Positions 3,736 through 53,356 are shown, counted from the stretch's first letter. The stretch is DNA of 64,000 nucleotides from Deltaproteobacteria bacterium (GCA_013151915.1 JAADHJ010000044.1:329-64328); one strand, 5' to 3'. Made by a program: numbers and translations. The notes: a model not told the origin generated them from the letters alone.

Positions 3736-3738
3736 AAA

Positions 3739-3786: not shown

Positions 3787-3791
3787 AAGGA

Positions 3792-4810: not shown

Positions 4811-4818
4811 GAGTTGAA

Positions 4819-4833: not shown

Positions 4834-4905
4834 CATAATAAAAAACAATTAATTTTACTTCAGGCTAAAGTCAATCTATTATTGGCGCCAATCGAGGAAA
4901 AAGCC

Positions 4906-5535
4906 ATGGATGGACTTTTTACGACCCTGCCAACAATGATTCTGACGTTTGCCCAGGGTTTCATAATGGGGGGCGGGCTGATCGTAGCCATTGGCGCCCA
5001 GAACTCTTTTATCCTGTCTCACGGCATCAGGCGCAGCCACCTCCTGCTTATTCCACTGATTTGCAGTATTTGCGAAATCGCCCTCATTGTCCTGGGGATG
5101 GCCGGGATGGGGTCTGTCATCGCCGCCCATCCCGATTTAGCCCGATGGGCCGCCTGGGGTGGCGCTCTGTTTCTGTTCTGGTATGGTCTGCGTGCTTTTC
5201 GTTCGGCAATTCGCGGCGCGAGCGTGGAGCGGGGAATGGTGTCGGCAGGTTCGCTGAAAACCGTCATTGGGACGACGCTTGCCGTCAGCCTCCTGAACCC
5301 TCAGGCTTTGCTGGATTCGGTTGTACTCCTTGGCAGTGCCGGCGGCCGGTTTGCCGGAACAGGTCGGCTCCTGTTCGGTATGGGCGCAATTCTGGCATCC
5401 GTGATCTGGTTCTTTTCCTTGAGCCTCGGAGGAAGGATGTTGGCCCCGGTGTTTCGTCGTCCTGCGTCATGGCGTGTTCTCGACTCAACTGTAGGGGTCA
5501 GCATGTGGACTATCGCTCTTTTCCTTATAGTATAG
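4906..5535 (+). CDS. argO: LysE/ArgO-family amino acid exporter
   Basis: LIVAIGAQNSFIL, SLLNPQALLD motifs; six hydrophobic segments; ATG 4906 follows GAGGA. Confidence 0.88.
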   Translation: MDGLFTTLPTMILTFAQGFIMGGGLIVAIGAQNSFILSHGIRRSHLLLIPLICSICEIALIVLGMAGMGSVIAAHPDLARWAAWGGALFLFWYGLRAFRSAIRGASVERGMVSAGSLKTVIGTTLAVSLLNPQALLDSVVLLGSAGGRFAGTGRLLFGMGAILASVIWFFSLSLGGRMLAPVFRRPASWRVLDSTVGVSMWTIALFLIV

Positions 5536-5660
5536 GACAAAGGATAGGAAAAACCTCCCCATCTCGATACTTCCCCCATGCTCCCAAGTGCCCCCTCGCC
5601 CCCGTTTATCCTGAGTCCCGCCGTCGGCGGGATCGAAGGGGCGTCTGCTTTTCTTCTCTT

Positions 5661-5702
5661 TGGACTCTGGACACTGGACTCTGGACTCCGAACTCTGGAC
5701 TT
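5661..5702 (+). repeat. Tandem heptamer array (TGGACTC)x6
   Basis: tggactc tggacac tggactc tggactc cgaactc tggactt. Confidence 0.9.
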
Positions 5703-5708
5703 TCTTTC

Positions 5709-5990
5709 CTACTCCGGACTATTCTCCTGACCCTTAACCACCCACTCCCTGACCCACATCCGGCCCATGAGATTCCGGAGGACGAAGGGATCCCGGCCTG
5801 TTATTTGTTCGGCCTCTTCGAGGCCTTCGGCGGAGAACAGGATCATGCCGCCCGAGCCGTCCCCGAAGGGGCCGCCCACATAATCCGGCGGGTCTACTTT
5901 TGCCCAGTAATCTATATGTTCAGGAACGACCTCCATGAGCCGATCGGGAGTGACCTTGAAGAAGTAGAAGAAAGCGAACCTTTTTGTCAT
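5709..5990 (-). CDS. YciI-family protein
   Basis: H..Y, GGPF.DGSGGMILF.A...EEA.....DPF pattern typical of YciI. Confidence 0.8.
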   Translation of the reverse strand: MTKRFAFFYFFKVTPDRLMEVVPEHIDYWAKVDPPDYVGGPFGDGSGGMILFSAEGLEEAEQITGRDPFVLRNLMGRMWVREWVVKGQENSPE

Positions 5991-6008
5991 GGAAAATCCC
6001 CAATATTA

Positions 6009-8078
6009 TTAATCTATTTCCGGCACAAACGGCTTGATCTTGCCCTTCTCCACCGTCAGGAGATAAGGGCGCTGGGCGATGTCCCCGTCCTGCCCGGTTG
6101 TAAGCGGGCCTTCCGAAGAGGGGGCGTTGGTGAGATTCATGAGGTAGTTCCTCAGGGATGACCGGTCGCTGACTATCCCTGACTCCAATCCCGAACGGAT
6201 CAGGTAGGCCGTGTCGAATGCCTGCGCTGCCAGTGGTTGGGGGTCCTCACCGAAACTGAGCCAGTACCTTGCCGAAAGTTCCCTGCTGACGGGATTATTC
6301 ATGTCGGCCAGGTATCCCCCCGTAAAAATAGCGCCTTCCACGTAATGTTCCCCTAACTCCACTATCCAGGGGCTGTTCCAGCCATCAGTACCGAGCAGGA
6401 GGGCATTGGTTATATCGTAGAAGGCAAGCTGCGGAGCCAGGAGGCCGACGGTCTGGAAATCGGCCGGGATGAAGACCGCGTCGAAATCCACAATGGAATC
6501 GACTTTCACATCCACCCCGTTTTCCTTTAGGATCTTCTCTTCCGGTGACAACGCGCGGTTAAGACCGACCATGGAGCGGATCTGGGGTCCGAAATCGGTT
6601 ACCCCGGGCGGAAAACTCTCAACGGCCGTCACCTCTGCCCCTCTTTTATCCAGCTCGTCCCAGAACCGGTTCATCATCTCCCTGCCGTAAACCGTGTCCG
6701 GATAAAGGATGGCGAACCTGGTCATCATGAGGCGGTCATGCGCCATGGTTACCAGGGACCTTATCTGCTGGGAGTCGGATAAGGCTCGGCGAAAAACATT
6801 CTCACCTATTTTCGGAATGGATGGGTCGGCGGAGAGGGTGATCATGGGGACGCCCGACCTCTCCGCCGCCTGGGCGGCAGCTTTCGAGGTCCTTGAGAAG
6901 ATCGGGCCGATGATAGCCAGAACGTGTTCCTTTCCGGCCAGATCAGTGACGGCCTGGGCAGCCTTCATGGGATCTGTCCCGGAATCGACAGTTACCAGGG
7001 TAAAACGGGGGGAGGATCCCTCCTGCGGCAATGGGGACATGAGGCCGAGGGCGGCCTGTATCCCCTGCAGCGCCTTCTCACCGTAGAGCTGATAGCGTCC
7101 GGAAAGGGGAAGGACAGCGCCGATGGTGTTGCTTTGAACGAGGAGATGGTCGCTTAATATATTGTATGCCTCGTCAATTTTTCCCTGTGGGACCAGCCCG
7201 GGATAATGCGTCAGAATGTCCATCAGGTCATTCATCCCCTCCTGATAGAGGCCCTTTTCAAGCATCCTTCGAAGCTGCTCCATGGCCGGATATACGAAAG
7301 GCTCAGTTCCGTCCGATTCCGCAAGTATGCTTGCCAGGGCTTTGTCTCCAAGACCCAACGCGGCCTGGGCCAGGGTCTTTCGGGCCTCGTCCCCGATCTT
7401 TTCGGAGACACCCCCGGCTGAGGCGGCGAGGAGGGCATCCCGGGCTCCCATGAACGCCTGCCGGTAGCGCTTTCTCTTGAGAAGGCACACACTCTTTTTG
7501 CCCAGGGCCTCGGCACGCTCCGGGGCGAGGAGGTCGAGAGTCAAGGCGTTGTCTATGAAACGAACGCAGTCTTTCCACTTTTCCCTGTGGAGGGAAATGT
7601 CCCCTTCGAGGAGGAAGATTTTTTTCCTCAAGGGGCTGTTGGCGAAGTCCCGCAGGAACCGTCTTGCGAGGCGAAGGGCCTCCCGCGGCCTGTCAAGGGA
7701 GGCCATGATCCGGACCTGTTCCAGTAGAGCATCGTCAGCGTACCTGCTGTCCGGGTGCATTCGGATGAATGCATCCAGCATGTCGTAGGCTGTCTCCGCG
7801 CGCCCGTCCTCACGGAATGTCCTAACTGCCTCCTGGTAGGCCATGAGTTCCTCACGATCGGAAACCCGTTCCCCTAGGCGAACCGGCTTCTCCCGGACCG
7901 CTTCCATCTGAGAGGGTTTCGGCAGAGCCGGTTTCGACTGAACAATATTCTGCGGAACCTTTTCCCGCTGGATTACGGAAGGACTGACACAGGCGAGGCC
8001 CAAGGGGGACAGTATTGCCAGCAGGGTGATAGTGGGGTATAAACGCCCAGAAGGTTTGAACTTTATTTGCATGGTCAC
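6009..8078 (-). CDS. Penicillin-binding protein activator LpoA-like lipoprotein (TPR plus periplasmic-binding domain)
   Basis: Lipobox GLAC, TPR-like helices (HPDSRYADDALL), IGAVLPLSG, IIGP, QAFD periplasmic binding fold. Confidence 0.75.
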   Translation of the reverse strand: MTMQIKFKPSGRLYPTITLLAILSPLGLACVSPSVIQREKVPQNIVQSKPALPKPSQMEAVREKPVRLGERVSDREELMAYQEAVRTFREDGRAETAYDMLDAFIRMHPDSRYADDALLEQVRIMASLDRPREALRLARRFLRDFANSPLRKKIFLLEGDISLHREKWKDCVRFIDNALTLDLLAPERAEALGKKSVCLLKRKRYRQAFMGARDALLAASAGGVSEKIGDEARKTLAQAALGLGDKALASILAESDGTEPFVYPAMEQLRRMLEKGLYQEGMNDLMDILTHYPGLVPQGKIDEAYNILSDHLLVQSNTIGAVLPLSGRYQLYGEKALQGIQAALGLMSPLPQEGSSPRFTLVTVDSGTDPMKAAQAVTDLAGKEHVLAIIGPIFSRTSKAAAQAAERSGVPMITLSADPSIPKIGENVFRRALSDSQQIRSLVTMAHDRLMMTRFAILYPDTVYGREMMNRFWDELDKRGAEVTAVESFPPGVTDFGPQIRSMVGLNRALSPEEKILKENGVDVKVDSIVDFDAVFIPADFQTVGLLAPQLAFYDITNALLLGTDGWNSPWIVELGEHYVEGAIFTGGYLADMNNPVSRELSARYWLSFGEDPQPLAAQAFDTAYLIRSGLESGIVSDRSSLRNYLMNLTNAPSSEGPLTTGQDGDIAQRPYLLTVEKGKIKPFVPEID

Positions 8079-8080
8079 TT

Positions 8081-8240
8081 TTGATAGGATCGTAAAAAAT
8101 CCTTTCGTGGCTTTTTACTCAACGGAAAGCGAAAAGTGTTATTTTCACTTTCCGCCCAAATCAACAACTTGCGCTGCAAGTCATTGCTTTGGGCGCCCTT
8201 CAATGGACGCGTTGATGACTTCCTGAGAAATCATCACTTT
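8081..8240. repeat. Intergenic repeat family B (GATAGGxTCGTAAAAA..TCC), long copy
   Basis: Aligns over about 80 bp with 19679-19760; its 3' part matches the reverse complement of 17062-17131. Confidence 0.8.
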
Positions 8241-10848: not shown

Positions 10849-10955
10849 TAGTGCCTGGTGCCTGGCGCCTAGTTTAGTTCAGGTTCAAACCGCGCAGTGT
10901 CTTAAGATACTAGGAACAAGGTACCAGGAACCAGGAACTTAATCCTGGAACCTGG
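10849..10955. repeat. Heptamer arrays (TGGTGCC and CAGGAAC types)
   Basis: tagtgcc tggtgcc tggcgcc; taggaac aaggtac caggaac caggaac. Confidence 0.75.
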
Positions 10956-10972: not shown

Positions 10973-11758
10973 ATGACCGATCTGTTTAACTCAATACTCC
11001 TGGGCATCCTCCAGGGTGTTACCGAATTTCTTCCGGTCTCCAGCTCGGGACACCTTGTGCTGGCCCAGTCCATCCTGCCGGGTTTCAGCGCACCATCGGC
11101 AGCCTTCGACATCCTCCTGCACGGTGGGACCCTCATAGCCGTTATCGCCTACTTTTATCGTGATATCATCGAGATGATTGTTGGAATGGTCAGGCCCCGG
11201 GAGGGAGGGTGGAAGCTTCCCTTGCTCCTTGTCGTGGGCAGTGTTCCAGTGGGCCTTGTGGGATTCCTGTTAATGGATGCCATTAAACCGCTCTTTTCGT
11301 CTCCCAGGGTCGCGTCGGGCGGACTCCTGTTTACGGGTGTTCTTCTGCTGATAGCGAGCAGGCTGCGCGGCGGCAGGACCAGGATGTCTGAAATAACCGT
11401 CGGATCAGCTGTACTCATCGGCTGTTTTCAGGCCGTTGCCGTTACCCCCGGAGTCTCCCGGTCAGGGGCGACCATTGCCGCGGCGATGCTTGTGGGGCTT
11501 TCCGCTACCGAGGCCGCCCGGTTTTCCTTCCTCCTCTCCATCCCCGCCGTCGGCGGGGCGGTTTTACTAGAGGGAAAGTCGATCCTGGGTGCAGGCCACA
11601 TGGCGGTCTATCTTGCCGGCGCGCTGGCCGCCGCAGTGGCGGGCTGGCTTTCCATTGCCCTGCTCATGAAGGTTCTGGCAAAGGGAAAACTCCTCCCCTT
11701 TGCCGTCTACTGTCTGTCTATCGGTTTCCTTTCGCTGGTCTTTTTGGTAGGGTCGTAA
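10973..11758 (+). CDS. uppP: Undecaprenyl-diphosphate phosphatase
   Basis: QGVTEFLPVSSSGHL, PGVSRSG, RFSFLLSIP. Confidence 0.95.
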   Translation: MTDLFNSILLGILQGVTEFLPVSSSGHLVLAQSILPGFSAPSAAFDILLHGGTLIAVIAYFYRDIIEMIVGMVRPREGGWKLPLLLVVGSVPVGLVGFLLMDAIKPLFSSPRVASGGLLFTGVLLLIASRLRGGRTRMSEITVGSAVLIGCFQAVAVTPGVSRSGATIAAAMLVGLSATEAARFSFLLSIPAVGGAVLLEGKSILGAGHMAVYLAGALAAAVAGWLSIALLMKVLAKGKLLPFAVYCLSIGFLSLVFLVGS

Positions 11759-11783
11759 AAGGTCCGAAGAGACTTTTTGCGAA
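11751..11783. repeat. Minimal palindromic copy of repeat family B; supplies the uppP stop codon
   Basis: ggtcgtaaaaggtc cgaa gagactttttgcgaa; TAA at 11756-11758 lies inside it. Confidence 0.6.
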
Positions 11784-13971: not shown

Positions 13972-14618
13972 GATCGATCATCGTGGCCCTTCTGGCCCTT
14001 TTCATCACTGCCGCCCCGGGTTGGGCGGCAAGCACCGGTGACGGGGCCGCCAAAACCCTGGCCCTTGTCCGCAAGGCCTACAGTACCCTCACGAGCATCC
14101 GGGCGGAATTTGTCCAGACCGAGGAGCGCCCCGGGGTGGGAATCTCCCATCGGGAAGAGGGTGTCCTGTCCTTTTTACTGCCCGACAGGATGCGCTGGGA
14201 CTACCGGGGAAAAAAGCCTCACAGGGTAATCATCAACGGGGATATTGTCTGGATCTACATGCCCGGCAGGCACCAGGTTGTCAGGAGAAAAATGACCCCT
14301 GAGGAGATGCGTCAGGGAGCCGGTACCTTTCTCGGCGGGATTGACCGCCTTGAGAAGGATTTTACGGTGCGGTCCGGCGGGACGGGGCCCGAAGGAAGAT
14401 ACGCGCTGGTACTTTTCCCGAAATCGAAGAAAACCTCCTACGACAGGATCGAGATTTTCGTGGAACCGGACACCGGGGTCATTGAGAGGATCACGATCCA
14501 CCATCGTATCGGTAACGTGACCACCATTTCTTTTGCCGGGATCGAAAGGAACGTGAAGCTGTCGCCCGACCTGTTCAAGTGGGACATCCCGAAGGGAACG
14601 GAGGTCATCGAGCCGTGA
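13968..14618 (+). CDS. lolA: Outer-membrane lipoprotein carrier protein
   Basis: Signal peptide, AEFVQ, PDRMRWDY, F..P.G.EVI C-terminus; downstream of ftsK. Confidence 0.85.
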   Translation: MRSIIVALLALFITAAPGWAASTGDGAAKTLALVRKAYSTLTSIRAEFVQTEERPGVGISHREEGVLSFLLPDRMRWDYRGKKPHRVIINGDIVWIYMPGRHQVVRRKMTPEEMRQGAGTFLGGIDRLEKDFTVRSGGTGPEGRYALVLFPKSKKTSYDRIEIFVEPDTGVIERITIHHRIGNVTTISFAGIERNVKLSPDLFKWDIPKGTEVIEP

Positions 14619-14700
14619 TGATGCGGGGATCCTTCAGATGGTGTATATGGGCGTAGAGGTGCAAGGCGTTTAAAAAATGTCGAAGTATCTGAAACCCGGG

Positions 14701-14749
14701 GTCCAACGTCCAATGGGATGAAAGAACGTTCAACGTTCAATGTTCAACG
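14701..14749. repeat. Heptamer array (CGTTCAA, reverse complement of the 494-549 unit)
   Basis: gtccaac gtccaat ... cgttcaa cgttcaa tgttcaa. Confidence 0.75.
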
Positions 14750-14759
14750 TGGAAAAGCA

Positions 14760-14902
14760 GCCTGCGAGGGGCTGTACTGTGGTAAATCAGCTTTTGATCT
14801 TTTCAGCTCCGCCCGGGATTGCCGCGTCACTCTCGTCTCCCTCGATGTTCCTCGCAATGACAGCAAAATAATAAAGGTACGCATTAACCGGATGGATGAA
14901 CC
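14760..14902 (+). mobile_element. Right part of MITE (subtype A)
   Basis: Highly similar to 28916-29054; ends accggatggatgaacc with a 4-bp duplication inside the TIR. Confidence 0.8.
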
Positions 14903-14939
14903 TAAAGTAAAAAACTTGGAACCTGGAACACAGGAGACT

Positions 14940-16268
14940 ATGGTACCGTTGCCCCACAAAAAGATGAAAATCGCTGTAGTTTCCCTCGGATGTTCAAAAA
15001 ACCTTGTCGATACAGAGGTAATGCTGGGACACCTGGCCGATTCCGGATGTGAAGTTATCGACGATCCCGAGTCCGCGGACTGCATCCTCATCAATACATG
15101 CTCATTCCTTACCGAGGCGGTTTCCGAATCCCTGGACCGCATAGTGGAACTTGCCGCTATCAAGGGAAAAGGATCAGTCAAAAGGCTCGTTGTGGCCGGG
15201 TGCATGGTGAGCCGCTACGGTCAGGAACTGAAAGGCGAGGTCCCGGAGATTGATGCCCTGGTTTCACCATCTTCCCTGGAACAGGTGATGTCCGCGGTCA
15301 TGGGAAGGGACATTGTCCCCTCCACGGACGAGACGTTTCCAACGCGCTTGATCTCCTTTCCTCCCCACAGGGCGTACCTCAAGATCGGGGATGGCTGTTC
15401 CAACCACTGTACCTATTGCATGATTCCCCGGATCAGGGGCGAATTCGTCAGCCGCCCCCTGCCTTCAATCGTGGATGAAGCCCGCTGGCTGGTCCAGCGG
15501 GGCGTGAAGGAGATCACCCTCGTCGCCCAGGATACCGGACGTTATGGCATGGACCGGGGTGGCGAAGATCTGCCGGAACTTATCCGGTCCATCCTGGAGG
15601 TGCGCGGCGACTTCTGGCTGCGGGGCATGTACATTCACCCCTCCCGGGTAAGCGGGCGTCTTCTGGAGGCACTTTCTTCCGATGAGAGGGTTTGCCGGTA
15701 CATGGACGTCCCCTTCCAGCATGTATCACCCTCCTTGCTGGGACGTATGGGCAGGGGGGCCGCGCCGGAGCCGCGAAGGGTCCTGGAGATGGTAAGGAAG
15801 CAGCTTCCCGGAGTCTTTTTCAGGACCACTCTGATGACCGGTTTTCCGGGTGAGACCGAGGATGATTTCCAGGCTTTACTGAGTTTCGTCCGGGAAGCCG
15901 AAATCAATCACCTGGGCGTCTTCGCCTACAGCAGGGAAAAAGGCACACCGGCGGCCGGCCTCATGGCTCAGGTGGATCCGGGGACGGCCCGGGAGAGGTT
16001 GGAACTCCTGATGGAGGAGCAAAGCCGGATATCCCGGGTGCTTCTAAAGGATATGATCGGGTTGGAACTGGAGGTCCTTGTGGAGGGTGAGGACGATGAG
16101 GGCGCCTTCGGACGCCATAGGGGACAGGCTCCCGAAGTGGACGGCGTCGTCAGGCTGAACCGGCGTTGTTCTCCCGGGGATCGGGTTATGGTCCGGATCA
16201 TGGAAAGCGGGGATTATGACCTTGAAGGGGAGATAATCAGTGGTGAAAATCCTCGCTCTGAACGCTGA
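14940..16268 (+). CDS. rimO: Ribosomal protein S12 methylthiotransferase
   Basis: SLGCSKNLVDTE, NTCSF, GCMV, YLKIGDGCSNHCTYCMIP, TRAM end APEVDG; AGGAG before ATG 14940. Confidence 0.93.
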   Translation: MVPLPHKKMKIAVVSLGCSKNLVDTEVMLGHLADSGCEVIDDPESADCILINTCSFLTEAVSESLDRIVELAAIKGKGSVKRLVVAGCMVSRYGQELKGEVPEIDALVSPSSLEQVMSAVMGRDIVPSTDETFPTRLISFPPHRAYLKIGDGCSNHCTYCMIPRIRGEFVSRPLPSIVDEARWLVQRGVKEITLVAQDTGRYGMDRGGEDLPELIRSILEVRGDFWLRGMYIHPSRVSGRLLEALSSDERVCRYMDVPFQHVSPSLLGRMGRGAAPEPRRVLEMVRKQLPGVFFRTTLMTGFPGETEDDFQALLSFVREAEINHLGVFAYSREKGTPAAGLMAQVDPGTARERLELLMEEQSRISRVLLKDMIGLELEVLVEGEDDEGAFGRHRGQAPEVDGVVRLNRRCSPGDRVMVRIMESGDYDLEGEIISGENPRSER

Positions 16269-17061: not shown

Positions 17062-17131
17062 TGCGCGGTTAATGTTGATGACCTCGCAAGAGGTCAACAA
17101 CGCGCCCACTGAAGGACTTTTTACGATCCTA
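17062..17131. repeat. Repeat family B copy (inverted)
   Basis: gaaggactttttacgatcc is the reverse complement of ggatcgtaaaaagtccttc. Confidence 0.7.
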
Positions 17132-17151
17132 CCAATATCGGCGAGGTGAGG

Positions 17152-19593: not shown

Positions 19594-19678
19594 TCGGTAT
19601 CGGCGGATTTCCGTATCGTGTACTCCTTTTTCAGCGCCGCCGCCCCGGTTTTCCGTGGCAATTGATTCCCCGGCAATT

Positions 19679-19810
19679 ATGATAGGGTCGTAAAAAGTCC
19701 GTTAACGGCTTTTTACTCCACGGAAAGCGAAAAGTGTCATTTTCACTTTCCTCACAAATCTTCGATTTGGGTGCCCCGTAGTAGGCGCATTAGTGTCATT
19801 TTCACTTTCT
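19679..19810. repeat. Repeat family B, long copy
   Basis: gatagggtcgtaaaaagtcc...gaaagcgaaaagtgtcattttcactttc aligns with 8081-8160. Confidence 0.8.
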
Positions 19811-23646: not shown

Positions 23647-24023
23647 GGCTGTGAACATGGTCCTCACAACATAGTGCAGACTATGCGCCGGTTTTTTGCC
23701 AAAACATGGTTTTAGTGGTTGAAATTGATAATTTGATGGGGTAAAATTTATCTATAAAAATCGCTGAATACCAAATAGCTGACTTCCGATCCTGTTGCGT
23801 CCTACCGGGATGGGCAGGACGATAGGGTGCGGGGAGCAATCGCCGTGCCTGCCGTTTTTTGCAAAGGAAGCCGTGACAAGGTCATGGCTTCCTTCTGTTT
23901 TTTGGAGGGGTTTTTTCTGGACGGAACGGATCCAGGGAGAAGGGAGGTGAGCCCTGGAGATAATAGTGCGATCGGTCCCGAAAAAAGCTTGGACCTGTTA
24001 TTAACCGTGAGGAAAGGAAGGTG

Positions 24024-27144: not shown

Positions 27145-27933
27145 GTGGCTGAGAAAATGATAGTAATCGATACATCCAAATGCATGGCCTGCCGCGGCTG
27201 CCAGACAGCCTGCAAGCAGTGGAATAACCTTTCGGCGGTGGTAACGGAAAATCACGGCAGCTACGAGAACCCCCCGGACCTCTCCTACAACACCTACACC
27301 AGGATACTTTTCAACGAGGTGGAGACGGATGGAGGTCTGCGCTGGTTCTTCGGCCAGGCCCGGTGCATGCACTGCTCGGATGCCGGGTGCATGAAGGCCT
27401 GCCCGGTCCCCGGCGCCATTACCCGCGACGGCAATGGGGCTGTCGTTATCAATCAGGATGTTTGCACCGGCTGCAAGTACTGTGTCTTCGGGTGCCCGTT
27501 CAACGTCCCGCGTTTCGATAGGGGTAACGCAGAGGGCGCCGGCGTGGATAAGGCGTTCAAGTGCACCATGTGCTTTGACCGCCAGTCCATGGGAATGGAG
27601 CCGGCATGCACCAAAACATGTCCTACGGGTGCTCTTTTCTTTACCCGCAGCTCCAAACTTCCGGCCGTCAAAGCCATGGCCAAGGAAAAGGGACTTACGG
27701 TATACGATGGCGGGGCACTGAACACCCACGTAGTCGTTCTCCTGGAGGACAAACCTTCGGTTTACGGGCTCCCCGACAAACCGGCCATCCCCACGTCGAC
27801 CTATCTGTGGCGGTCGGTCATGAAGCCTCTTGGTGTCGTAGTCTTCCTGGCGGGAGTATTCGCGGCCATTGCCCATTTCGTGACCATTGGACCTCAGGAA
27901 GCCGATGAGGAAGGAGGTGACAGCGATGTCTAA
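27145..27933 (+). CDS. fdnH: Formate dehydrogenase iron-sulfur (beta) subunit
   Basis: Four CxxCxxC motifs (CMACRGC, CMHC..C..ACP, CTGCKYC..CP, KCTMC..PAC..TCP); C-terminal TM. Confidence 0.94.
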   Translation: MAEKMIVIDTSKCMACRGCQTACKQWNNLSAVVTENHGSYENPPDLSYNTYTRILFNEVETDGGLRWFFGQARCMHCSDAGCMKACPVPGAITRDGNGAVVINQDVCTGCKYCVFGCPFNVPRFDRGNAEGAGVDKAFKCTMCFDRQSMGMEPACTKTCPTGALFFTRSSKLPAVKAMAKEKGLTVYDGGALNTHVVVLLEDKPSVYGLPDKPAIPTSTYLWRSVMKPLGVVVFLAGVFAAIAHFVTIGPQEADEEGGDSDV

Positions 27934-28528
27934 ACATCTTATTAAGCGCTATACCTCCGGTGAGAGGTTCTTCCACTGGCTCAATATGCTGGCCTTCATC
28001 GTGCTGGCCCTGACCGGATTGGGGCTTTACAGCCACAAATTCTTCTGGCTAACGGGTGTTTTCGGCGGGGTGGACATGTCCAGGGGTATTCACCATTACA
28101 CAGGATTGGTGTTCATTGTGACGACCTTCATCATCTTCTTCCAGTGGATGAAGGACTACACCACACCTGGCCAGGATTCCCTGGGGATCGTCATCAAGGA
28201 GTATATGGACCCGTCTTTCCATGGCCCTGACGCAGGCAAGCTTAACGCCGGCCAGAAGTCCCTCGGTTGGACGGTTTTCCTGCTCGGCCTGCTCATGGGC
28301 GCAACAGGGTTGGCCTTGTGGTTCCCCTTCACCTTGGGGCGTGGACTTCAGCAGTGGATGTACTTCCTCCACAACCTTGGATTCATCTTCTTCATGCTGG
28401 CAATGATCGCGCATGTGTACATGGGAACCGCTGCCAATCCCGGAACCTGGAGGGCCATGACCAAAGGTACGGTTACCAAGGCCTGGGCCAAAAAACACCA
28501 TGGCGCCTGGGAAGGCGAAGAAGTGTAG
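27926..28528 (+). CDS. fdnI: Formate dehydrogenase cytochrome b (gamma) subunit
   Basis: ER.FHW, IHH, GKLNAGQK, LHN, HVYM, AMTKGTV..WAKKHH..W. Confidence 0.93.
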   Translation: MSKHLIKRYTSGERFFHWLNMLAFIVLALTGLGLYSHKFFWLTGVFGGVDMSRGIHHYTGLVFIVTTFIIFFQWMKDYTTPGQDSLGIVIKEYMDPSFHGPDAGKLNAGQKSLGWTVFLLGLLMGATGLALWFPFTLGRGLQQWMYFLHNLGFIFFMLAMIAHVYMGTAANPGTWRAMTKGTVTKAWAKKHHGAWEGEEV

Positions 28529-28557
28529 CAGAGTAACACAGCATCCTGAAAAGGGTG

Positions 28558-28588
28558 AAAGGGGCTCCGAAATGGGGCCCTTTTTTTT
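28558..28588 (+). terminator. Intrinsic terminator after fdnI
   Basis: aaaggggctcc gaaat ggggcccttt followed by a T run. Confidence 0.8.
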
Positions 28589-28590
28589 GG

Positions 28591-29054
28591 GGGTCATCCT
28601 GGGAATGCGTACCTGAATGAATACCGGATCGGGTAAAAAGACAATTTAACACAGGGTACACGGGGTTAAGCAGGGTACACAGAGTTAAGGCAAAATTCTT
28701 AACGGGTTCAAGATTTCTAACGTCCTACCCGGCGTACCTTGCGGTGAAACAGCTTTATTTCTGTTTTTGCACAGTTCAAGAACAAAGCTGACCGCAAGTT
28801 AACGAAGTTTTGCTAACTTTAAAACCAGGACCTTATGGTTTTTAGATCTCCTCTGCTTGCCAGGTCGAAGCCTTGGCGAAGACTGGTAAAACCCTCTTTA
28901 AAACCCTGTGGAACGGCCTGCGAAGGGCCGTGCTGTGATAAATTAGCTTTTGACCTTCTCAGCTCCGCCCGGGATTGCCGCGTCACTTTCGTCTCCCTCG
29001 ATGCTCCTCGCAATGACAGCAAAATAATAAAGGTACGCGTTAACCGGATGAACC
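28591..29054 (+). mobile_element. Complete MITE (subtype A), 464 bp
   Basis: Left gggtcatcctgggaatgcgtacct and right aggtacgcgttaaccggatgaacc are imperfect inverted repeats; inserted next to the terminator T tract. Confidence 0.85.
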
Positions 29055-29158
29055 CTTTTTTTCTGTTTTCCCGAGTGGTTCCTTGACAAGTAGCAGTCCG
29101 TATTGGACTATTGATTCTTACACCGGTTGTTGAATGTTCTCCATATAAAGGACCATCG

Positions 29159-30580
29159 ATGCCCTCGGAAAACAACAGAAAAAACCTTCTTCGCCACCTT
29201 CCCAAGGTGGACCAGGTCCTGGCACGTGCAGCCCTTTCGTTCTCCTCACCCGCAATTGCCCCGCGCATCGTAAAGGACGCGGTGAGAGAGGAGATCTGTT
29301 TTCTCAGGGAAAGGGTCCTTTCGGGGGAGATCACCGAACCGGGACTGCTTTCCATCGATGTCGTCGCTGACGGTGCGAAAAGGCGGGCGGCGGTTAAGAA
29401 TGTTCCCCGGCTGCGCAGGGTCATCAACGCCACCGGAGTGGTCATTCACACCAACCTGGGCCGCAGTCCTCTGCCCGATAAGGCCGTTCGGCAGATGCAG
29501 CTGGCCGCCTCGGGATACTCCAACCTCGAATACAGCCTTAAAGAAGGAAAGCGTGGCTCCAGGGACGATCTCATTGAAGGGCTTCTGAGCGAGATCACGG
29601 GGGCGGAAGCCGCCACGGTAGTCAACAATAACGCAGCGGCCGTAATGTTGGTCCTCAATACCCTTGCGGCCGGATGTGGAGTGGTTGTCTCGCGGGGTGA
29701 ACTGGTTGAGATCGGCGGTTCTTTCCGCATACCCGACGTCATGTCCGCCAGCGGGGCCCGTCTTCTGGAAGTGGGGACCACCAACCGCACGCGCATAGGT
29801 GATTATCGCCAGGCTGTCGATGAGAACACAGCGCTTCTACTAAAGGTCCATACCAGCAACTACAGTATCGTCGGCTTTTCAGAGGAAGCAAGTGTCAAGG
29901 ACCTTGTCGTACTTGGACGGGAAAAGGGAATTCCGGTCATGGTGGACCTGGGCAGCGGTTGTCTCCTGGATGTCAGGACCCTGGGGCTGTCGCACTACGA
30001 GCCCACCGTTATGGATGTCCTGAAGGCGGGGGCCGATGTGGTTACCTTCAGCGGCGACAAACTCCTGGGGGGACCTCAGGCGGGCGTTATTCTTGGGAAA
30101 GCTTCCACAATACAACGCATTCGGAAGAATCCCATGAAACGCGCGCTTCGGTGCGGGAAAATAACCCTGGCGGCCCTTGAGGCTGTCCTGAAAATCTATC
30201 TGAACCCCGAGACCGCCGTTGGGAACTTGCCCATACTGAGGATGATCACGGCGAGCAGGAGTTCCGTTTCCCGCCGGGCCCATCGGTTTGCGGATCGCCT
30301 TAAGGATCTTCCGGCCCAGGTGTCCTTCCTTCCTGCATTATCAAAGGTCGGCGGCGGCTCCCTTCCCCTGGAGGAGATGCCCACCGTCCTCCTGGCCCTG
30401 GAGACCGAGGCGCTTTCCGCGCAGGATTTTGAGGCCCGGCTGAGGGAACAGGATCCGCCTGTGATAGGGCGTATCGTGGAGGATCGGGTGTGCCTGGACT
30501 TCAGGACCGTTTTGCCGAGAGAACTGGGGGAACTGGAACGAGCCATAAGGGGAGCGATCGGTTTCCGGGAAAACACGTAG
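29159..30580 (+). CDS. selA: L-seryl-tRNA(Sec) selenium transferase
   Basis: [55 protein letters not shown]. Confidence 0.97.
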
Positions 30581-38607: not shown

Positions 38608-38730
38608 ACCAGTGCCTGGTGCCGAGGAATCAGTGGTTTTTACTAGGAACCAGGAACTCTTCGACGCACTTTCGTTTGCTCAGGGCAGGCCTTTAAACCA
38701 GGAACCAGGAACCAGGAACTAGGAACTGAT
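38608..38730. repeat. Heptamer arrays (CAGGAAC type) with an embedded cttcgac..gctcagggcagg module
   Basis: caggaac caggaac caggaac taggaac read directly. Confidence 0.75.
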
Positions 38731-39399: not shown

Positions 39400-39473
39400 C
39401 AGAGTCCAAGGTCCAGAGCCCAGAGGGGAAGAACAGTCCAGAGTCCAGTGTCCAGTGTCCAGAGTCCAGAGTG
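39400..39473. repeat. Heptamer array (CAGAGTC, reverse complement of the 5661 unit)
   Basis: cagagtc caaggtc cagagcc ... cagagtc cagtgtc cagtgtc cagagtc cagagtg. Confidence 0.85.
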
Positions 39474-39598
39474 GAAAAGCGGATGCAAAGGCTTGGTCTA
39501 ACAGGAATGGAGGGGATAAGGCAGGTAATGGAGAAAAGCAGGATCTGGGACCCGCGGAGCGTAGCGTGCATCAGCGGCCAATGAGTTTTAAGAATTCC

Positions 39599-41958: not shown

Positions 41959-42429
41959 TTACTCCGTGTAATCGATGCCGTTCTCCCTGCACCATCGCCT
42001 GGCGGTTTCCTCGAAGGCCTGTCTCCTGAAAACAAACCATGGTTCCTCTATCTCCAGCCTCCGGATGGATAACTTGAACATGCGGAAAGCTCCCCTACCA
42101 TTTATAGCTTCCAGCAGTTCTCCGGAAACCTTCCTGTCCTCCCGAGAGTGGGCAAAGTCTTCCATAATCATGTATTCATTGATATCGAAACGGGTCGGGA
42201 GCGAGACGTAGCTTTCCGGATTTTCGAGTACATCCGCAGCGGCTTCGATGGCCTCTCTCGTTCCACCAGGGACCCGGCCCGGTGATTCGCCGTCCTCGGC
42301 GGCCCGCCACTCCTCATCGGTAATCATGAAGAGCTCTCCTGTCACCCTGTTCAAATAGGATTCCCGGCCGTCACCGAGGCTTTCCATCTCATCAACGATG
42401 TCGCTGATCCTCACGGAAGCTTTTTCCAT
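41959..42429 (-). CDS. UPF0158-family protein
   Basis: YLNRVTGE, LPT.FDI.EY.IME.F, AI.G.GAFR.FK. Confidence 0.85.
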   Translation of the reverse strand: MEKASVRISDIVDEMESLGDGRESYLNRVTGELFMITDEEWRAAEDGESPGRVPGGTREAIEAAADVLENPESYVSLPTRFDINEYMIMEDFAHSREDRKVSGELLEAINGRGAFRMFKLSIRRLEIEEPWFVFRRQAFEETARRWCRENGIDYTE

Positions 42430-42469
42430 ACACGACTCCTTTGTCCGATCCAGCTATGATATTTTACCT

Positions 42470-42870
42470 GGTTCATCCTGGAAATGAGTACCTGAATGAA
42501 GACCGGACTTCGGGAAAAGCTAATTTAACACGGAGTACACGGGGTTAAACAGGGTGCACAGAGTTTCACAGGGTAACACAGGGTTTATTTAAAACAAGTT
42601 AACGAAGTTTCGCGAAGTTTAAAACCAGTATCTTCATGGTTAGACCTCGCCCGTTGTCATCGTGAGCTGAAAACCGCCATCTGTCATCGCGAGCTGAAAC
42701 CCTTGCGAAGCGACCCCGTGAGCGACCGGAGGGCGCCGCAACGACCTTTTCAGCTTCCGTCTTCGTTCTTCGAACTTCGCCGTGACAAGTCGCCCGGGAT
42801 TGCCGCGCCACGGTTTTACTCGGGCTCGCAATGACAGCAATAATAAAGGTACGCATTAAACGGATGAACC
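42470..42870 (+). mobile_element. Complete MITE (subtype B), 401 bp, with 8-bp target-site duplication
   Basis: TTTTACCT flanks both sides (42462-42469 and 42871-42878); ends ggttcatcctggaaatgagtacct and aggtacgcattaaacggatgaacc. Confidence 0.92.
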
Positions 42871-42911
42871 TTTTACCTTAAGCGCAATTTCAACTATACC
42901 CGTATCTTATC

Positions 42912-45259: not shown

Positions 45260-45379
45260 CTGAGAACCCATGAGTCCCTCTAAACAAACACCGCCTCCTC
45301 ACAACCCCTGTACTGAAGTGGTAGGGTATTGGTGGACACATTCCTAAGAGCGGATATATATTCTCACAGGAGGTGTTCA

Positions 45380-45676
45380 ATGACCAAGGGAAAACGGCGC
45401 AACTACACACAGGAATACAAGGAAGAGGCTGTAAAGCTTGTAACGGAGCAGGGTTACAAGACATCGGAGGCAGCCCGGAATCTGGGTATCAACCCCAATC
45501 TGTTAGGTCGCTGGAAGCGGCAATTTGAGGTTGGCGCCGGGGATTATTCCAACCCTGGCGACAAGGTTGCCATGCAGTCGGAGTTGAAGCGTCTTCGCAA
45601 AGAGAACAAGCGTTTACAGATGGAGCGCGAAATCTTAAGAAAGGCGGCAGCCTTCTTTGCGAACGAATCGAGCTGA
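45380..45676 (+). CDS. IS3 transposase OrfA
   Basis: [43 protein letters not shown]. Confidence 0.9.
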
Positions 45677-46544
45677 GGTATCAATTCATTGATACGGCAA
45701 GGAAGGCATATCCGACAGCTCTGGTGTGTACGGTAATGAGAATAAGCAGGAGCGGCCATTACGCTTGGCGCAAGCGGGGTAAATCACTGCGTCAGAGGGA
45801 ACGTGACAGGCTGATTCCTGTTGTTCGTGAGGCGCATCGGCTATCAAAAGGGACCTACGGTGCCTGCCGTATCGCGAAGGAATTGGAAGCGCGCGGCGAG
45901 CCATGTGGTCGTACCAAGGCCGGCACCCTGATGGATCTGGCGAACGTTTCCGTCAGACGGGGCATGAAGTTCAAAGCGACAACAGACAGCAAACACGACC
46001 TGCCCGTCGCCCCGAATTTACTTGAACGTCGGTTTGATGTAGGGGAACCTGATCGTGTATGGGTTTCCGATATCACGTATGTGTGGACATTCGAAGGCCG
46101 GTTGTATCTTGCTGTTGTCCTGGACCTGTTTCCCGCAAGATCGTGGGGTGGTCCATCAGCAGCTGGATCAACCGAAAGCTGGTCATGGATGCCCTGTTCA
46201 TGGCCGTTCGCCTACGATGACCCGGTCCCGGCCTGATATTTCATTCGGATCGTGGGAGCCAGTATTGCAGTGATGACGTTCAGAAAAAGCTCAGGACCCA
46301 CAAGATGGTCAGCAGTATGAGCAGAAAAGGTGATTGCTGGGATAATACGGTTGCGGAAAGCTTCTTCGGCAGCCTGGAAGCCGAGCGTTTGTATTTAACG
46401 AATTACAGAACCAAGGAAGCAGCGAGACTGGATATCGTTGATTGCATCGAGATGTTCTACAATTGCAACCGGCGTCATTCTTACCTGGGATATCTGAGCC
46501 CGAAAACATTTGAGGAAATGTCGCTCGCCAAAATGGTTGCTTAA
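45673..46544 (+). pseudogene. IS3 transposase OrfB with a frameshift (about 46130) and an in-frame stop
   Basis: [16 protein letters not shown] then a shifted RKIVGW, HSDRGSQY, CWDN.VAESFF, YN..RRHS.LG. Confidence 0.88.
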
Positions 46545-47047
46545 AAAAGTGTCCATTTTTACTTGACCATCTCAGCTTCCCTCTTCAGGCAAGACACTTC
46601 ATGGATTGTAATGGGCTTGGATCCAAGCATCTCTTCGTGGTTCTCCAGACCGCTAACATTGCTTTAGCCGGCCATGCACCAGAATGAGGTGTAGGTATAT
46701 ATAGTAAAATATATCAAGCATTATCACAGACTTCGAAAAGAGCGGGAGAATGACGTATAAGAAGCATCTTGCCTGGTTCTTACCTGTACTCGCAATCTCC
46801 TAGTTTAGACTGGACTGTAAACGGGTTTTTGAGGCATATTGCAGATGTAACTTGACGGCTTTCAAGCGGGCCGCAGGCGAAATCCCGCTCTAATTCTCAG
46901 GTATGTTTTGGCCTGCTTGGCGGATTGATCTCCAGGCTACATCCAACTCTATGTAGGTTGCCGGCGATCTGCTCTGGATTTGTCACATGTGTCTGATCGG
47001 GATCCTCAGTATCGTTATAGGGTGACATGAAAATCCCCATTAATTGA

Positions 47048-47270
47048 GGTTCATCCTGGAAATGAGTACCTGGATAAAGATCGGAATGGGTGGAAAACTA
47101 ATTTAACACCGTTCGGCACGGCTTCGCTTGCTCACAGCAGGCAGGGTGATACAGGGTTAAATTAAAAGTTTTGTGTCGGCTTATGCACAGGTCAAGAGCC
47201 AATTGACCGCGAAGTTAACGAAGTTTTGCTAAGGTTAAAACCAGGACCTTAAGGGGTTTGATCTTAGCCT
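47048..47270 (+). mobile_element. Left part of MITE, right end missing
   Basis: ggttcatcctggaaatgagtacctg; gaagttaacgaagttttgctaa..ttaaaaccaggacctta is shared with 28795-28835. Confidence 0.75.
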
Positions 47271-47358
47271 GTCATGCCATCTTGTCCGTCATAGTCTGGA
47301 AGGCGAAGTCGGAAGCTCAAAAAAAGACGGCGGGAACGGTTACGGAGCTGCTTCTGAT

Positions 47359-47589
47359 TTGGGTCAGCAGCTGGACGTTTTAGCAAGGTGGAACTTATTA
47401 AGGGCCGATAAAACTGGAAATTACTTTGAGATGCACAGTCTTGTCCGACAGTTTGCATTAGAAAATTTGGATGATTCTGATGACGTGCATCTACGCCCGG
47501 CAAAACATTGCGCGAGCTTGAGCGAAGACATCGAACACCTTTCTTATCAGGACCCAGATAGGATGGTCGTTGGTCTTCAGTTATTCTGA
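47359..47589 (+). pseudogene. Possible fragment of an NB-ARC/AfsR-type ATPase-TPR gene
   Basis: FEMHSLVRQFALE resembles the MHxLVR motif; no start or rest of the gene seen. Confidence 0.35.
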
Positions 47590-50663: not shown

Positions 50664-50705
50664 TCAGTGAACTACCACGGGTTCATGCCCGTGGTAGTTC
50701 ACTGA
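50664..50705. repeat. Perfect inverted repeat (18-bp arms, 6-nt loop)
   Basis: tcagtgaactaccacggg ttcatg cccgtggtagttcactga. Confidence 0.95.
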
Positions 50706-50878
50706 ATTACAGAACCAGTGAAAGAGCGAAACTGGACATCATTGATTACATCGAGGTGTTCTACAATTGCAACCGGCGTCATTCTTACCTTGAATATCTG
50801 AGCCCGAAAATATTCGAGGAAATACCGCTTGCCAAAATGGTTGCTTAAAAAAGTGTCCATTTTTACTTGATCACATCA
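50706..50878 (+). mobile_element. IS3 3' remnant with right TIR
   Basis: Closely matches 46400-46574, including aaaatggttgcttaaaaaagtgtccatttttacttga. Confidence 0.88.
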
Positions 50879-50926
50879 CCTGGCACCGTTTACCCTGACG
50901 TCTATAGTTTGACCCCAAAAGCAATT

Positions 50927-51328: not shown

Positions 51329-51417
51329 GATAAACCTCCCGATAGAAGCCGATGAGCAACCTCCTCATTAAATATAATAACAGAAACCCCGGGATTTTGT
51401 GGAAACGCGGGTGGATC

Positions 51418-51445
51418 TGGGGTCAAAGCTCAGATTCTCAGGTTT
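51418..51445. repeat. 28-bp inverted repeat, downstream arm of the RAYT gene
   Basis: tggggtcaaagctcagattctcaggttt; overlaps the stop codon. Confidence 0.92.
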
Positions 51446-52289
51446 CGAGGGCCTTGATGATTTGGCAAAGATAGTTGGGGTTCATACTCAGGTGTGACGC
51501 GATTTCCTTCAGTGGATATTTATATGTTCGGTAGGCCTGGAGGATAGCCTGATTCCTCAGTTTTCTGGAACCGTTCATTCCACTGAATACTTCAGCCAAA
51601 GGAAGCCTTCCAGTACTAAGTTGTGTGTTGTTGATACCGGTTTTTTGATTCATGGGTCCATACTGCTTCAGGATGTTTTTGATAAACTCATCTGACCCAA
51701 GAAAGAGTTGAAAGCGGATGTCAAGCTTTGTCCTGAAACCATCCATGTCCGCCTCCACAAAACGGACGTAATTCTCCCTGGCCTTTTTAACAGTGAAGCC
51801 GAACTGTTCCAGGAGCCAGCCCGTCGTTAATAACGGCGGTGTTTTGACCAGCCCGGCGGTAGCGCCGTAACTGCTCCATGGCCACCCGCTCGGGTGTTCG
51901 ACAAGCTTTGCGTCCCATGGATTTAGAGCAATGTACCGGCAGCAGTGGAGGAGGTAGGTATCCTTCTGAACAATGATGGCTTTGTAACGCCCCTGAAGGA
52001 CATGACCGACCCGATGGTACTTGTAGTTGAAGAATTGGGTGTAGACCTGATTAAGATACTTCATCCCTTTGGCCAGGTTGGCATCAGGAGTTTCAATGAG
52101 GAGGTGGTAATGGTTTCCCATGAGACAATAGGCGTGGCAGAGCCAAGTGAAGCGTTTAATGGTCTTATGGAAAATATTGAGGAACTTGATGCGGTCGGCA
52201 TCGTCATGAAAGATCATCATCTGCGCATTTCCTCTGCTCATGATATGATAAAGAGCACCCTCATACTGGATCCTCAACTGGCGTGCCAT
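51438..52289 (-). CDS. REP-associated tyrosine (HUH/Y1) transposase with C-terminal HTH
   Basis: MARQLRI...YHI.SRGN, AYCLMGNHYHLL, GHVLQGRYKA, YI.LNP, WSSY; RBS GGGAGG. Confidence 0.92.
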   Translation of the reverse strand: MARQLRIQYEGALYHIMSRGNAQMMIFHDDADRIKFLNIFHKTIKRFTWLCHAYCLMGNHYHLLIETPDANLAKGMKYLNQVYTQFFNYKYHRVGHVLQGRYKAIIVQKDTYLLHCCRYIALNPWDAKLVEHPSGWPWSSYGATAGLVKTPPLLTTGWLLEQFGFTVKKARENYVRFVEADMDGFRTKLDIRFQLFLGSDEFIKNILKQYGPMNQKTGINNTQLSTGRLPLAEVFSGMNGSRKLRNQAILQAYRTYKYPLKEIASHLSMNPNYLCQIIKALET

Positions 52290-52353
52290 AGCCGCTTGCC
52301 TCCCTGTTGAATGGGTATGGCAGGTAATAAGCAAAACCAGGGCCAAAAGGGAA

Positions 52354-52381
52354 AAACCTGAGGATCTGAGCTTTGACCCCA
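52354..52381. repeat. 28-bp inverted repeat, upstream arm of the RAYT gene
   Basis: aaacctgaggatctgagctttgacccca; 27/28 complementary to 51418-51445. Confidence 0.92.
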
Positions 52382-52384
52382 TAT

Positions 52385-53356
52385 ATGGCAATAGCTTTTT
52401 TCGCAGTTGTTTTTGGCCTGGCGCTCCTTGTTTGGAGCGCCGGCCGTTTCGTGGAGGGTTCAGCCTTCACCGCACGCCATTTTGGAATGCCGCCGCTCCT
52501 GATTGGCATGGTGATCCTTGGTTTCGGCACATCCGCGCCTGAAATGGTGGTTGCAGCGTTCGCGGCATCACAGGGCAATCCAGGCATCGCTCTCGGCAAC
52601 GCGTATGGTTCAAACATCACGAATATCGCACTGATCCTTGGGCTGACGGCCTTGATCAGTCCCCTCGCGGTCCATTCGCAGGTGCTGCGCAAGGAATTGC
52701 CGATTCTCATAGCCGTTACGGGCCTGGCCGCCTATCAGATTTGGGATGGCGAGATCACCCGTACCGATTCTCTGGTGTTGTTGGTCGTATTCGGCAGCCT
52801 GATGGTCTGGACCATCCTGCAAGGCCTGCGAAAAAAATCGGACGTTCTGGGAAGCGAGATGGAATATGAGCTCGAAGAACGCAGCATGCCGCTTGGCCGG
52901 GCTGTCTTTCGGCTCGTAATCGGCCTGACCCTGTTGATCGCAAGTTCCCGCATCCTGGTCTGGGGGGCGGTTGAGATCGCGCACGGTTTCGGGGTGAGCG
53001 ATCTGATAATCGGCCTGACCATTGTGGCCGTGGGTACTTCGCTGCCGGAGCTTGCTTCGTCGGTGATCGCCGCCCGCAAAGGTGAGCACGATATTGCATT
53101 GGGCAACGTTCTTGGCTCCAATCTTTTCAACACATTGGCCGTTGTAGGCATCGCAGGGACGATTCACCCCCTGGCCGTGGGGCCGGAAATACTCGGCCGT
53201 GACGTTCTGGTAATGGCGGTACTAACCGTCGCGCTCTTCGTCATGGGCTATGGATATCGGGGTCCAGGGCGCATCAACCGGCTCGAAGGCGCGGCGCTGC
53301 TTGCCTGCTACATCGGCTACATCGCCTACCTGGCGACCAGTGTCTTTGGCCGGTGA
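52385..53356 (+). CDS. Calcium/sodium antiporter (CaCA, YrbG-like)
   Basis: Alpha repeats GTSAPE / GNAYGSNITN and GTSLPE / GNVLGSNLFN. Confidence 0.93.
   Translation: MAIAFFAVVFGLALLVWSAGRFVEGSAFTARHFGMPPLLIGMVILGFGTSAPEMVVAAFAASQGNPGIALGNAYGSNITNIALILGLTALISPLAVHSQVLRKELPILIAVTGLAAYQIWDGEITRTDSLVLLVVFGSLMVWTILQGLRKKSDVLGSEMEYELEERSMPLGRAVFRLVIGLTLLIASSRILVWGAVEIAHGFGVSDLIIGLTIVAVGTSLPELASSVIAARKGEHDIALGNVLGSNLFNTLAVVGIAGTIHPLAVGPEILGRDVLVMAVLTVALFVMGYGYRGPGRINRLEGAALLACYIGYIAYLATSVFGR

Follow-up and report, generated by a model that had tools for sequence, protein, structure and literature searches.

A short element with ISL3-type ends and a mosaic interior in a deltaproteobacterial genome

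Within a 64-kb stretch of a deltaproteobacterial genome (the window, meaning the whole stretch of DNA that was analysed), a 401-bp segment at 42470-42870 ends in inverted repeats and lies between two identical 8-bp words, which raises the question of whether so short a sequence has moved as a unit, what kind of transposase would recognise its ends, and what it carries between them. The segment, copy A, lies on the plus strand, and its junctions read TTTTACCT / GGTTCATCC...GGATGAACC / TTTTACCT, slashes marking the element boundaries. With more of each end included, the region 42462-42878 reads TTTTACCT / GGTTCATCCTGGAAATGAGTACCT ... AGGTACGCATTAAACGGATGAACC / TTTTACCT. Direct reading of the flanks gives an 8/8 match between the left target-site duplication (42462-42469) and the right one (42871-42878), and the terminal inverted repeats are 24 nt each, both as had been predicted from the sequence; the repeats are imperfect, with 19/24 positions matching. 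The left repeat, GGTTCATCCTGGAAATGAGTACCT (42470-42493, + strand), has no mismatches to the end pattern used for searching and shows the 9-nt tip and 24-nt layout of the ends of ISL3 insertion sequences (ISs). The right repeat (42847-42870, - strand; reverse complement GGTTCATCCGTTTAATGCGTACCT) matches the same pattern, and on the plus strand it can be read as AGG TAC GCA TTA AAC GGA TGA ACC, that is, as RYALNG followed by a stop codon.

The end sequence occurs at seven sites in the window when up to three mismatches are allowed, versus 0.02 expected from shuffles: left ends begin at 28591, 42470 and 47048, and right ends finish at 207, 14902, 29054 and 42870. Together with repeat finding and pairwise BLAST, these sites define five copies in 64 kb, two of them full (A, with a subtype-B interior, and B) and three of them halves (C, D and E). 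Copy B (28589-29054, + strand, 466 bp) is complete, with a subtype-A interior and a second, inner inverted repeat. The original prediction of a second full copy at 28591-29054 was right about its existence, while the start lies at 28589, the left tip is mutated to GGGGGTCATCC (from GGTT to GGGGGT), and the left duplication (TTTTTTTT, 28581-28588) matches the right one (CTTTTTTT, 29055-29062) at 7/8 positions. All three partial copies that had been proposed are likewise real, with two boundaries changed. Copy C, the right half of a subtype-B element on the plus strand, was found by repeat finding, pairwise BLAST and end match at 51-207, and so extends to at least 51 rather than 73; its left side may continue past the start of the window. 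Copy E, a left half on the plus strand that comprises the left end, degraded 9-mers and the core module (47048-47259), ends near 47259 rather than 47270. Copy D (14758-14902, + strand) is the right half of a subtype-A element whose right end, at 14902, carries a 4-bp duplication, GGAT. A radical-SAM methylthiotransferase gene (UPF0004, Radical_SAM and TRAM domains; ATG at 14940) begins 37 nt beyond it, and the segment with copy D is missing in relatives, in which metagenome contigs join 14618 to 14912 (X3) or 14621 to 14963 (X1).

The division of the interiors into two subtypes also held up on alignment. The subtype-A interiors of B (28916-29050) and D (14760-14894) share 135 nt at 92.6% identity, and the subtype-B interiors of A and C align at 82% (42683-42755 with 51-123) and 91% (42798-42870 with 132-207); repeat finding and pairwise BLAST between A and C return shared stretches of 45 nt and 76 nt, each at 91%. 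A stray block of 9-mers on the plus strand (TTTTACCCTGTGTAACCCTGTGGTAAATGGGCTTT, 241-278) sits 34 nt outside the right end of copy C, with units of the type found in copy B at 28898-28953 and in a related metagenome locus (L178, 11620-11668). The surroundings of copy E deserve a separate remark. Directly after this half copy, 47270-47500 resembles a fragment of a protein-coding gene (...LLSRWNLLRADKTGNYFEMHSLVRQFALENLDD...) that has no start, which suggests a rearrangement junction. The copy lies amid IS3-family debris (45329-46236, 46400-46577 and 50704-50881), made up of an HTH_Tnp_1 ORF, a truncated HTH_21/rve ORF and two 178-nt copies, 89% identical, of the 3' end of an IS3-type transposase gene with its terminal sequence; the debris flanks a 4.3-kb segment with an aroK-aroB fusion gene and an alcohol dehydrogenase gene.

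What kind of element do these ends belong to? Copies A and B contain no wholly internal ORF longer than 85 aa, and a Pfam search with a 208-aa ORF that runs partly over copy B gave no match. A tblastn search of the whole 64-kb window for an ISL3 transposase or a remnant of one gave a best E value of 0.15, outside the copies, in keeping with the expectation that the element is non-autonomous. The ends also occur in other genomes. A collection with one genome per species was scanned with a loose end pattern, such that about half of the 120 matches are chance; the remaining half or so have the full GGTTCATCCG...GTACCT end with A+T-rich DNA before it, in Syntrophobacteraceae and other deltaproteobacterial MAGs, Chlamydiae, Bacteroidota and Acidobacteria. 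Inverted pairs of these ends lie 1.3 kb apart in two loci (L012, 4390-5709; L003, 5949-7328), each pair enclosing one ORF (401 aa in L012, 399 aa in L003) that matches Pfam DDE_Tnp_ISL3 (E = 3e-78 and 8e-77) and NCBIfam transpos_ISL3 (320 and 313 bits, cutoff 180). A metagenome scan, in which most of the matches listed are other members of the end family, yielded at least about 20 further complete ISs of ~1.31 kb, bringing the number recovered to at least about 25, along with many short elements that have matching ends and no ORF. These ISs are 65-80% identical to each other overall, yet their 24-nt ends are near-invariant. They define a large environmental ISL3 subgroup in which conservation is far higher in the 24-bp ends than elsewhere in the element.

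The right ends in the window retain the coding layout of the ISs. In L012 and L003 the transposase ORF stops three bases short of the element tip, with its stop codon within the end (GGA TGA ACC), and its 3' end reads RYAFVG or RYSLAG before the stop. The right end of copy C (184-207) agrees at all 24 nt with ends in two other loci (L086 and L209). In the standard description of the ISL3 family, terminal repeats have this length and the target duplication is 8 bp long and A+T-rich. The ISL3 chemistry that had been suggested is thus borne out by the same 24-bp ends on ISs with an ISL3 transposase and by 8-bp A+T-rich duplications as the rule, and complete ISs with these ends and a transposase are present in other genomes (L012, L003), with none within the 64 kb. 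A search of the same metagenomes for a partner IS returned, at 80% identity or more, short conserved blocks of transposase only; in run X1, ISL3-like contigs had a depth of 2-6, which does not fit the ~46 of the host strain, and they could not be assigned to it. Taken together, the 401-bp element is very probably a non-autonomous derivative, or MITE, of an ISL3-family insertion sequence. A distinct and tight MITE family of ~209-212 bp with ISL3-type ends was also seen to recur in several metagenomes (L166, 128-338; L223, 5367-5578; L211, 143-354; L174, 254-462; L178, 119-327; also L191, L205, L228 and L236), with 8-bp duplications matching at 7-8/8 positions in most of these copies and at only 4/8 in L211.

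Evidence for movement comes from a census of target duplications and from empty sites. The census covered the window and 240 loci among the matches listed, taking inverted ends 100-3000 bp apart and comparing the 8 bp outside them. Among the 73 end pairs in the window and the listed loci, the flanks agree at 8/8 positions in 19 and at 7/8 in 14, so 33 pairs match at 7-8/8; an offset control that used the next 8 bp outward gave no better than 5/8 in the same 73 listed pairs. The best 33 target sites among the matches listed are 80% A+T, with positions 3-6 nearly all A or T. Duplications flank full ISs (L012, L016, L121, L184 and L200) as well as elements of 116-772 bp (for example L019, L025, L036, L149, L154, L174, L178, L188 and L223).

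The empty-site test used contigs, aligned to 27600-29900, of public metagenome runs with strains ~95-98% identical to the window. For copy B, contigs in two runs (X1 and X5) join 28578 to 29053 and skip 474 nt, exactly the 466-bp element plus one 8-bp target. The empty allele was also read in contigs from two independent assemblies (L241 and L242), which encode the closest SelA homologue, 97% identical; the nearest SelA relatives in named organisms are 52-55% identical. The empty allele reads ...GGGGCTCCGAAATGGGGCCC CTTTTTTT CTGTTTTTCC..., with a single CTTTTTTT, identical to the right duplication of copy B, at the junction GGGGCCC / CTTTTTTT / CTG, and the filled allele in the window reads ...GGGGCCC TTTTTTTT GG(GGGTCATCC ... 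GGATGAACC) CTTTTTTT CTGTTTTCCC..., parentheses enclosing the element from 28591. Since copy B is absent in these relatives and a single target word stands at the site, it is a true insertion, as the original prediction of mobility implied. For copy A, no empty site was found in the metagenome relatives, whose similarity is lost ~40-120 nt beyond its right end, where their contigs break. At a more distant locus (L243, SelA 86% identical), another fragment of the family lies inverted upstream of selA; this fragment, together with the absence of copies B and D in relatives, points to a fast turnover of these intergenic regions. Within each run, 5-15 contigs leave the right end into unrelated A+T-rich sequence. 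Tip-to-tip empty and filled alleles are thus documented for an ISL3-derived MITE from an uncultured sediment or vent lineage.

The interior of the element is a mosaic of short structured repeat modules, not transposase debris. From left to right, a left-arm block and a core are followed by GC-rich hairpins that differ between the subtypes, then by a GGGATTGCCGCG...CTCGCAATGACA unit and finally by the right end. The left-arm block of copy A (42513-42589, + strand) consists of AAAAGCTAATTTAACAC and six units of 9-10 nt of the ACACGGAGT / CACAGGGTA type; across the full copies it is AAAAGCTAATTTAACAC with five to six 9-10-nt units of the CACAGGGTA type. The 9-mers that had been predicted, CACAGGGTA and its variants, occupy 42527-42589 in A and 28648-28690 in B. 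In copy B the 9-mer block recurs inverted at 28898-28953. We also considered a resemblance of the 9-mers to GAGTAC / GGTAC in the inner portion of the ends, and dropped it as too weak, since it is present in some units only. The central core module (AAGTTAACGAAGTTT..TTTAAAACCAG, 42596-42643, + strand) is common to A, B (28796-28843) and E (47212-47259). As AAGTTAACGAAGTTT...AAAACCAG, the core was seen in the window, in close strains and, as an inverted fragment, upstream of selA in L243; the AAGTTAACG core was not seen in L001-L240 among the matches listed, and in many metagenome contigs the match is restricted to 42596-42628. The subtype-B module (42655-42755, + strand) has a direct repeat, TGTCATCG(T/C)GAGCTGAAA, present twice, and a stem AGCTGAAA/TTTCAGCT with a GC-rich loop. 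The GGGATTGCCGCG..CTCGCAATGACA module of the right arm (42796-42836, + strand) is the part most abundant in metagenomes, and its CTCGCAATGACA (42825-42836) is complementary at 11/12 positions to TGTCATCGCGAG (42682-42693), the long-range hairpin that had been noticed at the outset.

This composition bears on a second reading, that each copy is an independent relic of a full ISL3 element whose interior was deleted after insertion, with no transposition of a short element at all. The transposase reading frame and stop codon retained in the right end and the partial degradation of the ends are what one would expect from such relics. No copy contains a transposase remnant by tblastn, however, and four non-IS modules, 86-100% identical between A and B, follow one another in the same order in both, which independent deletions would not give; the same modules also stand beside the right end at high copy depth. 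We regard deletion relics as extremely improbable, and the shared order of non-IS modules instead indicates that the ISL3-derived MITE multiplied as a short element.

Read depth in metagenomes with near-identical strains gives an idea of how far it multiplied. The depth over the element is 8 to ~145 times that over the flanks, ratios that, being from metagenomes, are an upper bound for one genome; a high copy number in the genome, as had been proposed from the five copies in the window, is plausible. In run X1, depth climbs from 40-80 over the flanks to 390-670 at the left end, 1100-1900 across the core and 2000-6700 across the GATTGCC...CTCGCAATGACA unit and right end, and in metagenomes the depth of the interior and right-arm modules exceeds that of the left end 5-10-fold, from which it follows that much of their spread was not as intact two-ended elements. 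The modules do indeed occur on their own: the GATTGCC...CTCGCAATGACA unit stands without an ISL3 end nearby three times in tandem in L229 and once each in L131 and L178, and L178 also has 9-mer blocks with the same hairpin and a TAAATTAGCTTT tail, again with no ISL3 end nearby. The idea that the element ferries REP-like palindromes is supported to this extent.

One could go further and regard the whole structure as a mosaic of REP/BIME-like palindromes, spread by an HUH tyrosine transposase (RAYT) or by recombination, in which the ISL3-like ends are one more module rather than working ends. Modules without ends (L229, L131, L178 and L129), the half copies and the excess of interior modules over left ends in depth would all fit, and the window does contain a RAYT-like gene (Pfam Y1_Tnp, E = 1.3e-10; 51438-52391) within a 31-nt inverted repeat. 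Like the modules here, REPs, BIMEs and REPINs are short GC-rich imperfect palindromes arranged in intergenic mosaics. However, copy B is absent in relatives exactly from tip to tip with one 8-bp copy of the target left, and copy A has a perfect 8-bp duplication; we know of no REP/RAYT chemistry that yields either outcome, and to our knowledge REPs have neither IS-type terminal inverted repeats nor target duplications. The IS-type ends and 8-bp duplication place the element outside the REP/RAYT group. In addition, the RAYT-like protein scores 53.6 bits against an NCBIfam RAYT cutoff of 80. The repeat flanking its gene is unique in the window and the loci and unrelated to the modules, on which ground we rejected a link between gene and modules. 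We consider a REP/RAYT origin very unlikely and retain the ISL3-derived MITE as the carrier of these modules. The RAYT-like gene itself is a 317-aa ORF on the minus strand with a probable start at 52290 and the motifs GNHYHLLI and QGRYKA, and the 31-nt inverted repeats around it (51415-51445 and 52354-52384) are 94% complementary.

A narrower proposal concerns the cargo. The 9-mer arrays, with a AAAGCTAATTTA(A/C)CAC leader and an inner inverted repeat, and the GATTGCC...CTCGCAATGACA unit might be separate, widespread intergenic repeats of anoxic sediments that ride in ISL3 shells, a suggestion we make tentatively and hold to be rather doubtful. A literature search for the CTCGCAATGAC / GTCATTGCGAG module found unrelated primer matches only. 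In L049, L134, L156, L162, L181 and L237, as in copy A, an ISL3-type end is followed inward by a 9-mer array, at a distance of 20-100 nt. Since this pairing recurs in many unrelated loci, the array could be more than passive cargo; it might, for instance, provide subterminal sites to which the transposase or a host protein binds.

The same recurrence of end and array in many divergent loci can be taken to mean that the element is now kept for a host function, as a promoter/terminator cassette, a protein-binding 9-mer array or a small structured RNA. Some structural features would fit. Copy B folds as DNA far better than its shuffles (z = -6.27); its inverted 9-mer block creates an inner inverted repeat and with it a very stable fold, which copy A, having no such block, does not share (z = -1.55). 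In two hairpins, base pairing survives double substitutions between copies (CGGCC/GGCCG versus CAGCC/GGCTG; CTG/CAG versus CCG/CGG); the subtype-B stem is kept in copy C (56-123) by a T:A to C:G double change. With two sequences per hairpin, too few for a covariation test, this is suggestive only. An outward -35-like hexamer in the left end would also suit a promoter cassette. Against a host function, copy A folds no better than chance, Rfam has no match over the copies, even at E values up to 5, or in 12 related loci, the orientation to neighbouring genes is inconsistent, and copies B and D are missing from close relatives. The single RNA run contained an ATPase gene of another organism and a 35-nt scrap of the element. 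On balance we find retention for a host function unlikely.

A local effect is likely at copy A, judging from promoter motifs. The UPF0158-family gene to its left (41959-42429, - strand) has a -10-like TATCAT at 42456-42461 (- strand, recognised by consensus match only), and a -35-like TTGAAA lies at 42888-42893 (- strand), moved 409 bp further off. When copy A and one duplication are removed in silico, the minus strand reads TTGAAA-17 nt-TATCAT-26 nt-ATG; with copy A in place, the reverse complement of its left end offers an outward TTTCCA at the same 17-nt spacing to TATCAT. Copy A thus probably splits the promoter of the UPF0158-family gene, the weaker, end-borne TTTCCA replacing the former -35 element, which makes for a testable local effect. 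Copy B went into the T-tract of a terminator-like hairpin downstream of a cytochrome-b gene (27887-28528), and because this target was duplicated the terminator retains its T-tract and is likely to have been left intact. Elsewhere in the window, two riboswitches score above their Rfam gathering thresholds, one for cobalamin (3533-3747, - strand, 110 bits) and one for molybdenum cofactor (23772-23885, + strand, 41 bits).

Based on these data we can outline how the family may have arisen and spread. An ISL3 DDE transposase made elsewhere would recognise both 24-bp ends (GGTTCATCC...GTACCT) and mobilise the element in trans, moving the segment between them to a target of 8 bp rich in A+T, which would be duplicated when the staggered cut is repaired; the duplication and the pair of empty and filled alleles are observed. 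The sites chosen would include T-tracts behind terminators (copy B) and promoter spacers (copy A). Subtypes A and B could have come about by gain, loss and exchange of modules, and the half copies by truncation or replacement, with the widespread modules existing also as free-standing repeats in the intergenic DNA of related sediment bacteria and the AAGTTAACG core probably specific to this lineage. The damaged ends (the left tip of B and the GGAT of D) and the fact that three of the five copies are halves hint that the family is extinct here, and it may no longer be mobile in this genome.

How does the element compare with known systems? Tn3-family ends are ~38 bp long, start with GGGG and are associated with 5-bp duplications. 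TIMEs, mosaic non-autonomous transposons from Tn3-derived ends that enclose and move unrelated DNA (PMC4133298), are, like the element here, a non-autonomous shell of two IS or transposon ends; the 24-bp ISL3-type ends starting GGTTCATCC and the 8-bp duplications nevertheless set our element apart from Tn3-derived TIMEs. Its closest counterparts are ISL3-derived MITEs described from Microcystis aeruginosa (187 nt, GGCTCTTCG tips and 8-nt direct repeats; PMC11448079) and Methanosarcina acetivorans (179 bp, partner ISMac21 and 7-nt repeats; PMC3852290). These are likewise short and non-coding, with ends like those of ISL3 ISs, and their partner ISs are ~1.2-1.3 kb long (PMC11448079, PMC3852290). 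Unlike them, the element here is about twice as long (401-466 bp) and has an interior that is a mosaic of other repeat modules; its tip is GGTTCATCC where that of the Microcystis MITE is GGCTCTTCG, its host belongs to a sediment or vent lineage, and its partner IS was not found within the 64-kb window.

Modular interiors are known from other families of short elements. The BOX elements of Streptococcus pneumoniae are built of boxA, repeated boxB and boxC, vary in length, have terminal inverted repeats and target duplications, have been proposed to depend on an IS with similar ends (ISSpn2) for movement in trans, and are often clustered or nested with other repeats (PMC3049150). Both BOX and the element here are modular with inverted ends and duplications; there is no sequence relationship, and the proposed partner IS is a different one. 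Moreover, the BOX modules belong to BOX itself, whereas the widespread modules here also occur independently of the ends. Abundant partial copies are a feature of Chunjie and QMITE2, according to a review (PMC10969869). Chunjie, from Geobacter uraniireducens, is described there as having conserved ends and duplications, a length of 178-235 bp and dozens of end-less partial copies, mostly intergenic; it is unrelated in sequence to the element here, and the review mentions no mosaic of independent repeats.

With matching ends, an 8-bp A+T-rich duplication, a small size with no transposase, multiple copies at unrelated sites and an insertion polymorphism (copy B), the element is a real, once-mobile ISL3-derived MITE of an already published kind, and its sole unusual trait is an interior patched from other short repeats. 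It leaves the current understanding of MITEs unchanged. Its mosaic cargo does illustrate how IS ends can package small repeats and spread them, and recognising such repeats is of use in annotation, as they break short-read assemblies and yield spurious small ORFs.

The window holds further small repeats. A second family, built around TTGATAGGGTCGTAAAAAGTCC, has members at 4894-4928, 8068-8171, 11731-11766, 17106-17146 and 19666-19769 and at ~955-1000 in L241, and also occurs in L129, L123, L141, L176, L159 and L199. A 46-bp member lies upstream of selA in L241 and L242 and is missing from the window at 29079/29080, so this family is polymorphic as well; a mobile repeat is one possibility, a shared operator or promoter element another. 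Finally, intergenic tandem arrays of 7-mers are present at 505-544, 5651-5701, 10915-10939, 14725-14750, 38637-38720 and 39435-39478, of the types (AACGTTC)n, (GGACTCT/GGACACT)n and (CCAGGAA)n, some of them in both orientations, and similar arrays of 7-9-mers are common in related metagenome loci (L138, L141, L156 and L163).
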